Positions 17,672 to 17,878 of a DNA stretch of 64,000 bases are shown here, piece after piece. Every line of letters begins with the position of its first letter. The stretch's first letter is position 1. Below the pieces are notes generated by a model. That model was not told where the DNA came from. It did not search any database and was given only the letters and a program-made list of their open reading frames with translations. Origin of the DNA: Escherichia coli (GTDB lineage Bacteria > Pseudomonadota > Gammaproteobacteria > Enterobacterales > Enterobacteriaceae); assembly GCF_024502345.1 (NCBI RefSeq), contig NZ_JALDNN010000001.1, one strand, 5' to 3'. Made by a program: the position numbers and the translations under genes.

Positions 17672-17878
17672 TTTGCCGGATGCGGCGTAAACGCCTTATC
17701 CGGCCTACGGTTCGATGCGATTTGTAGGTCGGATAAGATGCGCAAGCATCGCATCCGACAATAAGTGCCGGATGCTGCGAAAATGCCTTATCTGGCCTAC
17801 AGATTCGATGCGATTCGTAGGTCGGATAAGATGCGCAAGCATCGCATCCGACAATAAGTGCCGAATGCGACCTACATT
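17672..17878. repeat. BIME/REP cluster with a tandemly duplicated unit
   Basis: REP-type palindromes (gccggatgcggcgtaaacgccttatccggcctac) and a twice-repeated ttcgatgcgatt(c/t)gtaggtcggataagatgcgcaagcatcgcatccgacaataagtgcc unit. Confidence 0.75.

Follow-up and report, generated by a model that had tools for sequence, protein, structure and literature searches.

In Escherichia coli, a tandem array of repetitive extragenic palindromic (REP) sequences fills the space between ybhC and ybhJ, two genes that converge. The array was studied in a stretch of 64,000 nucleotides (nt) from contig NZ_JALDNN010000001.1 (NCBI RefSeq assembly GCF_024502345.1), which is called the window below and to which coordinates refer unless stated otherwise. 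It is very probably a locally amplified REP array of the BIME-2 type (BIME, bacterial interspersed mosaic element), which would stabilize mRNA 3′ ends behind Rho-dependent termination. A role as an RNA 3′-end stabilizer of the REP type, most of which we infer, is the most likely one. The element is of an already known kind, is present in the K-12 reference and shows known behavior.

Structure of the array

Tandem Repeats Finder reported a single array spanning 17674-17869, with 2.1 copies at a period of 93, 91% matches and a score of 334. Direct-repeat families in the same register were returned by a repeat finder, one of 65 nt with 97% identity and a spacing of 93, the other of 35 nt with 89% identity and a spacing of 92. 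Unit 1 occupies 17674-17765 (92 nt) and unit 2 occupies 17766-17858 (93 nt); the truncated start of a third unit follows at 17859-17876. The two units are identical at 86 of 92 aligned bases, and their differences (six substitutions and one indel) are confined to the Y REP and the tail-to-tail linker. The probability of at least 86 matches in 92 arising by chance is ~1e-37. A preliminary description had placed a tandemly duplicated REP/BIME unit at 17672-17878, between ybhC and ybhJ. The duplication is borne out by the agreement of the two repeat programs and the position by the RefSeq annotation of matching genomes, and the coordinates were right to within 2 nt. The unit size given there, approximately 100 bp, needs correction: the repeat stands, its period is 92/93 nt, and the string that was quoted is the most conserved core of ~65 nt. 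Nor is the unit embedded in REP palindromes, as had been stated; the unit itself is a REP pair.

Each unit consists of a Y REP, a short linker, an inverted Z2-like REP and the pentanucleotide ATAAG, and two such units are followed by a truncated REP. The four complete REPs (35-38 nt each) alternate in orientation, with short linkers between them (14-15 nt tail to tail, 5 nt head to head), and all carry the CTAC/GTAG tetranucleotide. REP1, TGCCGGATGCGGCGTAAACGCCTTATCCGGCCTAC (17674-17708, + strand; 5′-TGCCGGATGCGGCG...CCGGCCTAC-3′), is a canonical Y-type REP, and in the Rfam alignment it matches the naRNA4 consensus for the Y hairpin at every position. The tail-to-tail linker of unit 1, GGTTCGATGCGATT (17709-17722), leads to REP2 (17723-17760, − strand), which is Z2-like and inverted, with GTAG on the + strand and the reverse complement TGTCGGATGCGATGCTTGCGCATCTTATCCGACCTACA. 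The first head-to-head linker ATAAG (17761-17765) joins REP2 to REP3, the degenerate Y REP of unit 2 (17766-17800, + strand). Next come the tail-to-tail linker of unit 2, AGATTCGATGCGATT (17801-17815), the Z2-like REP4 (17816-17853, − strand), which equals REP2 save at most at its first base, and the second ATAAG linker (17854-17858). In the truncated fifth REP (17859-17876, + strand), which forms the fixed right boundary, the head TGCCGAATGCG is fused directly to the tail ACCTACA. The array is extragenic and sits between two stop codons, where it fills the 233-nt gap apart from a 15-nt spacer after the ybhC stop codon (17659-17673, + strand) and a 15-nt right flank, TTCACATGGCGCTTT (17877-17891).

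Folding gave a very stable hairpin for REP1 (−21.3 kcal/mol, z −4.9) and hairpins of about −19.4 to −19.9 kcal/mol for REP2 and REP4. REP3 has three stem-weakening substitutions and one loop substitution relative to REP1; its hairpin is weakened to −12.6 kcal/mol, and non-standard pairs were flagged in the Rfam alignment. REP3 is thus a decaying Y REP with three stem mismatches.

Classification of the element

BIMEs consist of a REP and an inverted REP across a linker (Ton-Hoang et al., 2012, PMC3333891; classes of Bachellier/Gilson). BIME-2 elements combine y and z2 across a short linker, occur in multiple tandem copies, are conserved within a locus and vary in number among strains, and "atypical" BIMEs are chimeras (PMC3333891). 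The array between ybhC and ybhJ resembles BIME-2 in its 30-40-nt imperfect palindromes with GTAG/CTAC, arranged as inverse pairs with short linkers. It is likewise in tandem, well conserved within the locus, variable in number by strain and extragenic at the 3′ ends of genes. The difference lies in the second REP of each unit, which has the length and loop of z2 but a Y-like G/C at the Y/Z position and two further compensated pairs. REP2 and REP4 align along the whole naRNA4 Z2 hairpin, and the six differing positions make up three pairs in which both sides have changed (C-G to U-A, U-A to G-C and C-G to U-A). One of these pairs lies where Y (G) and Z (T) are told apart. REP2 and REP4 are therefore Z2-like in length and loop and Y-like in the outer stem, and with the Y-like G/C they lack TGCC|TGAT, the type I cleavage site of TnpA-REP in z REPs (PMC3333891). 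By its architecture and behavior the array fits BIME-2, with only the strict z2 identity uncertain. The name REP/BIME used in the preliminary description is upheld by the Y consensus of REP1, the alignment of REP2/REP4 to Z2, the alternating orientation and the GTAG/CTAC motif.

The naRNA4 RNA requires two hairpins, Y and Z2 (Qian et al., 2015, PMC4550694). A match to the naRNA4 family (RF02564) was found at 17727-17797 on the − strand, covering REP3-ATAAG-REP2, with 60.7 bits against a gathering score of 59.5; five other local naRNA4 matches were weaker and fell below the threshold. The match reflects the common Y-linker-Z2 architecture. Like REP325, on whose Y-linker-Z2 unit the Rfam naRNA4 model is based, the array is made of tandem Y-linker-Z2 units and has a covariance match above the gathering score. 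REP325 differs in having six 77-nt units with a 13-nt "l" linker, between yjdM and yjdN (PMC4550694), whereas two 92/93-nt units with a 5-nt head-to-head linker are present between ybhC and ybhJ.

Two other classes were considered and rejected. RRS elements are GC-rich repeats of ~222 bp; PMC10592627 reports two specific copies of them, located 650 kb from dif, and treats BIME-2 as a separate class. BIME-1 (RIB/RIP) is a single y-L-z1 unit with an IHF site in a long linker. The array is in tandem and has no long linker, and the IHF consensus WATCAANNNNTTR was found on neither strand of the ybhC-ybhJ intergenic region.

REPIN/RAYT systems of Pseudomonas have reportedly been described by Bertels and Rainey, in 2011. 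REP doublets are thought to be mobilized or recombined by a domesticated Y1 transposase. The features for TnpA-REP binding, GTAG and a stem mismatch (PMC3333891), are present in REP1, REP2 and REP4. In contrast to REPIN/RAYT systems, the copy-number changes between ybhC and ybhJ need only local recombination.

RNA 3′ ends and transcription termination

Curated Term-seq data list RNA 3′ ends at MG1655 positions 805822 (−) in LB at an optical density (OD) of 0.4 and 805821 (−) in LB at OD 2.0 (Adams et al., 2021, PMC7815308). Coordinates were converted as MG1655 coordinate = 823656 − window coordinate, which puts these ends at 17834 and 17835 of the window, in ybhC sense (+). The 61-mer printed as the context of the end occurs once in the window, at 17784-17844. 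An inter-REP hairpin is predicted at 17787-17830 (+ strand; −24.9 kcal/mol, z −5.4), formed across the linker by base pairing of REP3, through its 3′ half, with the 5′ half of REP4. When an RNA ending at 17834 was folded, the mapped 3′ end lay 4-5 nt past the stem of this hairpin.

A Rho termination region with its peak at MG1655 position 805363 (−) was reported from an experiment with bicyclomycin (BCM; Adams et al., 2021, PMC7815308). Reads upstream and downstream numbered 136 and 24 without BCM, and 141 and 149 with BCM (Rho score 5.99, p 4.9e-15; PMC7815308). The peak corresponds to window position ~18293 (+), antisense to ybhJ and ~415 nt further downstream. A scan for promoter and terminator consensus sequences found none inside the array, and no intrinsic terminator was called in window positions 17400-18100.

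The published 3′-end and Rho data fit the classical picture of read-through, Rho termination and trimming to a hairpin. Transcription of ybhC would not be halted by the array but would read through it, and Rho would end the transcript antisense to ybhJ, a few hundred nt into that gene. The RNA would then probably be trimmed back by 3′→5′ exonucleases to the very stable REP hairpins, and the end left under their protection would be the one at 17834/17835, 4-5 nt beyond the REP3-REP4 hairpin. Intergenic REPs between malE and malF are said to act as mRNA stabilizers, in work ascribed to Newbury and Higgins in 1987 and to Khemici and Carpousis in 2004. The array is similar in that paired inverted REPs lie in a 3′ untranslated region and the RNA ends just past a REP-derived hairpin. 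The ybhC end differs in following an inter-REP hairpin, REP3 with REP4, and not a single REP hairpin.

Strains without REPs at this position have an allele of 69-70 nt with two back-to-back intrinsic terminators, one per converging gene. The + strand terminator is GGGCGCTATATTTCATAGCGCC followed by T7 and the − strand terminator is AACCCGATGGTTCAGACTATCGGGTT followed by TTCTTTTTTT, with fold z-scores of −5.7 and −6.8; three intrinsic terminators were called in this allele by the terminator scan. These terminators, like those at the same site in Citrobacter, share with the array its position and the task of ending two converging transcripts. The BIME allele, in contrast, has no hairpin with a T-run by the same scan, and termination in ybhC sense is Rho-dependent and occurs further downstream. 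As a 3′-end stabilizer, the array would stand in for the intrinsic terminator pair of the REP-less strains. At the right edge of the BIME allele (17856-17895), a weak bulged hairpin that includes the truncated REP is followed by U5 on the + strand (−11.6 kcal/mol, z −2.7). By eye, the right flank of the BIME allele, ATTCACATGGCGCTTTTT, looks similar to the right end of the REP-less allele, ATTTCATAGCGCCTTTTTTT. This likeness suggests that the flank may be a remnant of a terminator descending arm and T-run, and that the BIME may have replaced most of an older terminator.

Effects of REPs on translation have been reported to change between spacers of ≤15 and ≥16 nt (PMC12306157), and the 15-nt spacer after ybhC sits on this boundary. 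A spacer-linked REP effect on the translation of ybhC is only a possibility.

Copy number among E. coli genomes

A megablast search with 17450-18100 as the query matched 5,425 of 5,426 complete E. coli genomes, with a median of 25 places per genome for this array-containing query. Copy-number shares were estimated from evenly spaced samples of the ranked matches together with diagnostic queries. Two such samples each gave 21 two-unit, 14 one-unit and 4 REP-less genomes among 39 informative rows. About half of the genomes are therefore estimated to carry two units and ~36-40% one unit. Alignment of six alleles showed three gap states: 233 nt in the window and K-12, 140-141 nt in O157:H7 EC4115 and elppa10, and 69-70 nt without REP in EC332 and E-1246. 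The REP-less intergenic sequence was detected in 527 of the 5,426 genomes, SMS-3-5 and 042 among them (510 with a longer query). A junction specific to unit 2 was covered to at least 80% in 3,012 genomes and matched with at least 99% identity in 2,451. Four genomes, ML775, UTAK-1, OkiPb01711 and SI-NP020, matched a synthetic three-unit query over its full length as one uninterrupted match; in the two of these that were inspected, the arrays have the order u1-u2-u2 with identical u2 copies. The strain-specific copy number expected in the preliminary description is thus apparent, with 0, 1, 2 or 3 units in E. coli and 5 in E. albertii.

Assembly of short tandem repeats can go wrong, and collapse of the duplication on resequencing had been named as the observation that would overturn it. 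An assembly artefact is, by our estimate, close to impossible. The MG1655 reference, whose match is 99.8% identical to the window, has the same 233-nt gap and the same array layout, and the identical two-unit structure recurs in thousands of independently assembled complete genomes (roughly 2,500-2,900). Two units are also present in a separate species-level lineage, Escherichia sp. E1V33. The published 61-nt Term-seq context matches unit 2 specifically, and the units differ at 7 positions, so that reads tell them apart. The duplication is genuine and old, with no assembly error.

In a few REP-less genomes (e.g., E. coli O102:H6 M2021_10044824_1_E) the intergenic query matched only from position 19 onward. 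No ybhC annotation lies under the match in these genomes, where ybhC may have a disrupted or replaced 3′ end.

History of the locus

Genomes representing species were scanned with a degenerate pattern for the YbhC C-terminus, and the gap was extracted where ybhJ converges on ybhC. The gap of E. albertii NBRC 107761 (513 nt) holds five units and the same truncated REP, and that of Escherichia sp. E1V33 (234 nt) two units. One unit is present in E. whittamii (142 nt) and in two species representatives labelled E. coli, SCPM-O-B-8794 (142 nt) and E69 (139 nt). Escherichia sp. MOD1-EC7003 has a single Y REP in a gap of 62 nt. Several Citrobacter genomes have gaps of 53-72 nt with no REP and a terminator composed of an A-run, a hairpin and a T-run. 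The left spacer measures 15 nt in all BIME-bearing alleles of Escherichia that were examined, and the truncated-REP right boundary is common to all 1-, 2-, 3- and 5-unit alleles; therefore, all size changes are internal. Unit 2 of E1V33 has the same three degenerating substitutions as REP3 of K-12, so the duplication is old or has been exchanged by recombination.

Both Z2-like copies of a genome carry the same lineage-specific loop variant, namely GCGCAAGC in K-12, GCGTCAGC in E1V33 and GCGCCAGC in O157, E. whittamii and most E. albertii units. The match of loop variants within a genome suggests homogenization between units. The Z2-like variant with its linkers occurs at a median of 2 places per genome; it is therefore essentially locus-specific, and the units arose by local amplification. 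Several haplotypes exist among the one-unit alleles. That of elppa10 combines REP1 with the unit-2 linker and has the look of a u1/u2 chimera, for which the simplest explanation would be that a two-unit allele underwent a deletion joined within GGCCTAC. Unit 1 of E1V33 has the same type of linker as elppa10, and the elppa10 state could also be ancestral. Between the window and EC332 the mismatch density is ~2.7% across ybhC and ybhJ with no clear peak at the gap, and no local recombination patch was seen. The array would have originated by local amplification of the 93-nt unit, and the unit number would expand and contract by recombination or slippage between near-identical units. TnpA-REP (RAYT) may help in changing the copy number.

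Such a history also allows a reading in which the array has no selected function: selfish or neutral REP proliferation and unequal recombination would have overwritten the terminators, and the RNA 3′ end would be incidental. We consider this possible, though doubtful. The unit number drifts from 0 to 5 with no obvious constraint, REP3 decays through three stem mutations (from −21.3 to −12.6 kcal/mol), and REP-less strains are common and include well-known isolates. TnpA-REP, moreover, cleaves and recombines BIMEs in vitro and has been proposed as a source of BIME amplification (PMC3333891). Against neutrality, the array has persisted with the same junctions all the way from E. albertii to E. 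coli, the pairing of the REP2/REP4 hairpin has been kept through the three compensated changes relative to the Z2 consensus, and the lineage-specific variants common to the Z2-like copies within a genome suggest homogenization.

Several features of related arrays were noted as well. The five units of E. albertii NBRC 107761 are more diverged from each other than the two E. coli units. Its unit 3 reads GATGTG...CACATC, where GATGCG...CGCATC is found in the others, so that an alternative inner stem is changed on both sides. In the gap of Citrobacter sp. MGH106, TTATCCAACCTAC looks like a decayed REP tail and adjoins the intrinsic terminator hairpin. Different REP-like palindromes lie at the ybhC-ybhJ site in C. 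youngae, C. gillenii and Citrobacter sp. Res13. REPs seem to have colonized this gap more than once in enterobacteria.

Role of the array

A number of points weigh against the array being a BIME-2 stabilizer of mRNA 3′ ends. The Rho calls use 800-nt windows and are coarse in resolution. The Term-seq peak is weak, its count of 23,469 in LB at OD 0.4 being equal to the lowest minus-strand value among the table entries examined, and for reads from the Z2 part the assignment to one unit or the other could be ambiguous. Exonucleolytic trimming back to a hairpin is the usual explanation of such an end and enters here by inference. No curated 3′ end is listed on the ybhJ-sense strand (Adams et al., 2021, PMC7815308), so that the 3′-end evidence concerns ybhC. 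The suggestion of the preliminary description that such elements can affect the mRNA stability of convergent genes is more than plausible, as a published ybhC-sense RNA 3′ end lies inside the array. As to the class, REP2 and REP4 carry G where Z-type REPs have T and are not textbook Z2. A strict y+z2 composition is uncertain, and the array might also be classified as an "atypical BIME." Within the locus, none of 29 pairs showed a double change (14 distinct units from six Escherichia lineages); without covariation at the locus, structural support comes from the genome-wide family and the folding energies. The involvement of TnpA-REP is speculative, as homologous recombination or slippage would suffice.

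The main role of the array could instead be at the level of DNA or the nucleoid, where it would act as a gyrase site and supercoiling barrier, or through a naRNA4-like RNA that binds HU. We regard this as unlikely to be the main role, although it is compatible with the stabilizer role. Gyrase cleavage sites are enriched in BIME-2 elements, which behave as strong gyrase sites independently of transcription (PMC6379681). They are also found mostly between supercoiling regions (PMC10592627). Bridging by HU and naRNA4 has been reported (PMC4550694), and the naRNA4 match at 17727-17797 (−) exceeds its gathering score. The location between converging genes is one where positive supercoils would pile up. 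Conversely, the names ybhC and ybhJ are absent from two supplements of PMC6379681, a weak point given that the sites may appear there as coordinates in the numbering of a different strain. The naRNA4-like match falls on the strand in ybhJ sense, which lacks a curated RNA 3′ end, and the head-to-head linker has 5 nt as against 13 nt in naRNA4. The array is also missing from ~10% of E. coli genomes. The DNA-level roles of BIME-2, as gyrase site and supercoiling barrier, may nevertheless apply between ybhC and ybhJ by analogy.

The allelic series of 0, 1, 2 and 3 units, with terminators in the REP-less strains, could provide a natural system in which BIME-based and terminator-based 3′ ends can be compared. 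A bolder idea, which we judge to be quite improbable, is that in this natural allelic series BIME units (1, 2, 3 or 5) and the terminator pair are interchangeable means of ending converging transcripts. Which form is present, and with how many units, would then measurably tune the expression of ybhC and ybhJ, transcriptional interference or local supercoiling, and the unit might also release a naRNA4-like RNA that binds HU. If this were true, ybhC-ybhJ would be a convenient natural setting for testing the function of BIMEs, which has long been debated. Nothing at the locus is surprising to a specialist, and the practical use of the result lies mainly in annotation: the array should be labelled as a REP/BIME repeat, and the open reading frames (ORFs) inside it are not genes. 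No repeat feature is annotated at the locus in the RefSeq K-12 record, and a literature search found no paper that names both ybhC and ybhJ.

Genes and open reading frames around the array

The gene ybhC (16375-17658, + strand) encodes the outer-membrane lipoprotein YbhC of 427 amino acids and ends with the stop codon TAA at 17656-17658. The converging gene ybhJ (17892-20177, − strand), which ends at 17892-17894, encodes a putative hydratase of 761 amino acids. Both are identified by their ORFs and by the RefSeq annotation of matching genomes, K-12 MG1655 among them; for ybhC the identity is 99.8%.

Two ORFs with repeated peptides overlap the array. One of 135 amino acids (17715-18122, + strand) contains MRFVGRIRCASIASDNKCRM twice and runs antisense into ybhJ; the second, of 58 amino acids, lies at 17705-17881 on the − strand. 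Both ORFs exist and the 93-nt period preserves the reading frame, so that a real small protein with a repeated peptide might be encoded by either. The chance of this is, in our view, negligible. In a Pfam scan neither ORF had a family at the cut-off, the 58-amino-acid ORF giving sub-threshold noise only, and neither is annotated in the RefSeq genomes examined. The peptides repeat in both because 93 nt equals 31 codons, and the longer ORF is open only because it passes antisense through ybhJ. Moreover, the region is missing in 527 genomes and has 1 to 5 units elsewhere, and the REP hairpins, which are conserved genome-wide at the level of DNA and RNA, account for the sequence. Both ORFs are spurious by-products of the repeat period, as the preliminary description had proposed for the + strand ORF.

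Position 17647 is A in the window and G in K-12 and in the four other E. coli alleles that were compared (GAGACG versus GAGGCG). The YbhC C-terminus accordingly reads ...VAETKK and not ...VAEAKK, a difference that looks strain-specific. The attB core of phage lambda, GCTTTTTTATACTAA, occurs once, unoccupied, at 16314-16328 (− strand), between ybhB (15747-16223) and ybhC. Strain EC332 has a prophage with integrase and excisionase genes exactly at the attB position, upstream of ybhC.

Other elements in the window

A canonical Y REP was also found at 7975-8008 (+ strand), directly followed by a match to the small RNA family ES036 (CssrF) of Rfam at 8009-8050 (+ strand; 43.4 bits against a gathering score of 37.6). 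At 41859-42818 (− strand), seven tRNA genes are interleaved with two matches to RtT repeats, at 41859-41984 and 42643-42811. A molybdenum-cofactor riboswitch at 6600-6744 (− strand, 103.6 bits) and a CpoB/ybgF RNA thermometer at 43745-43883 (− strand, 140.4 bits) both scored well above their gathering scores, and both are expected in this region of the E. coli chromosome.

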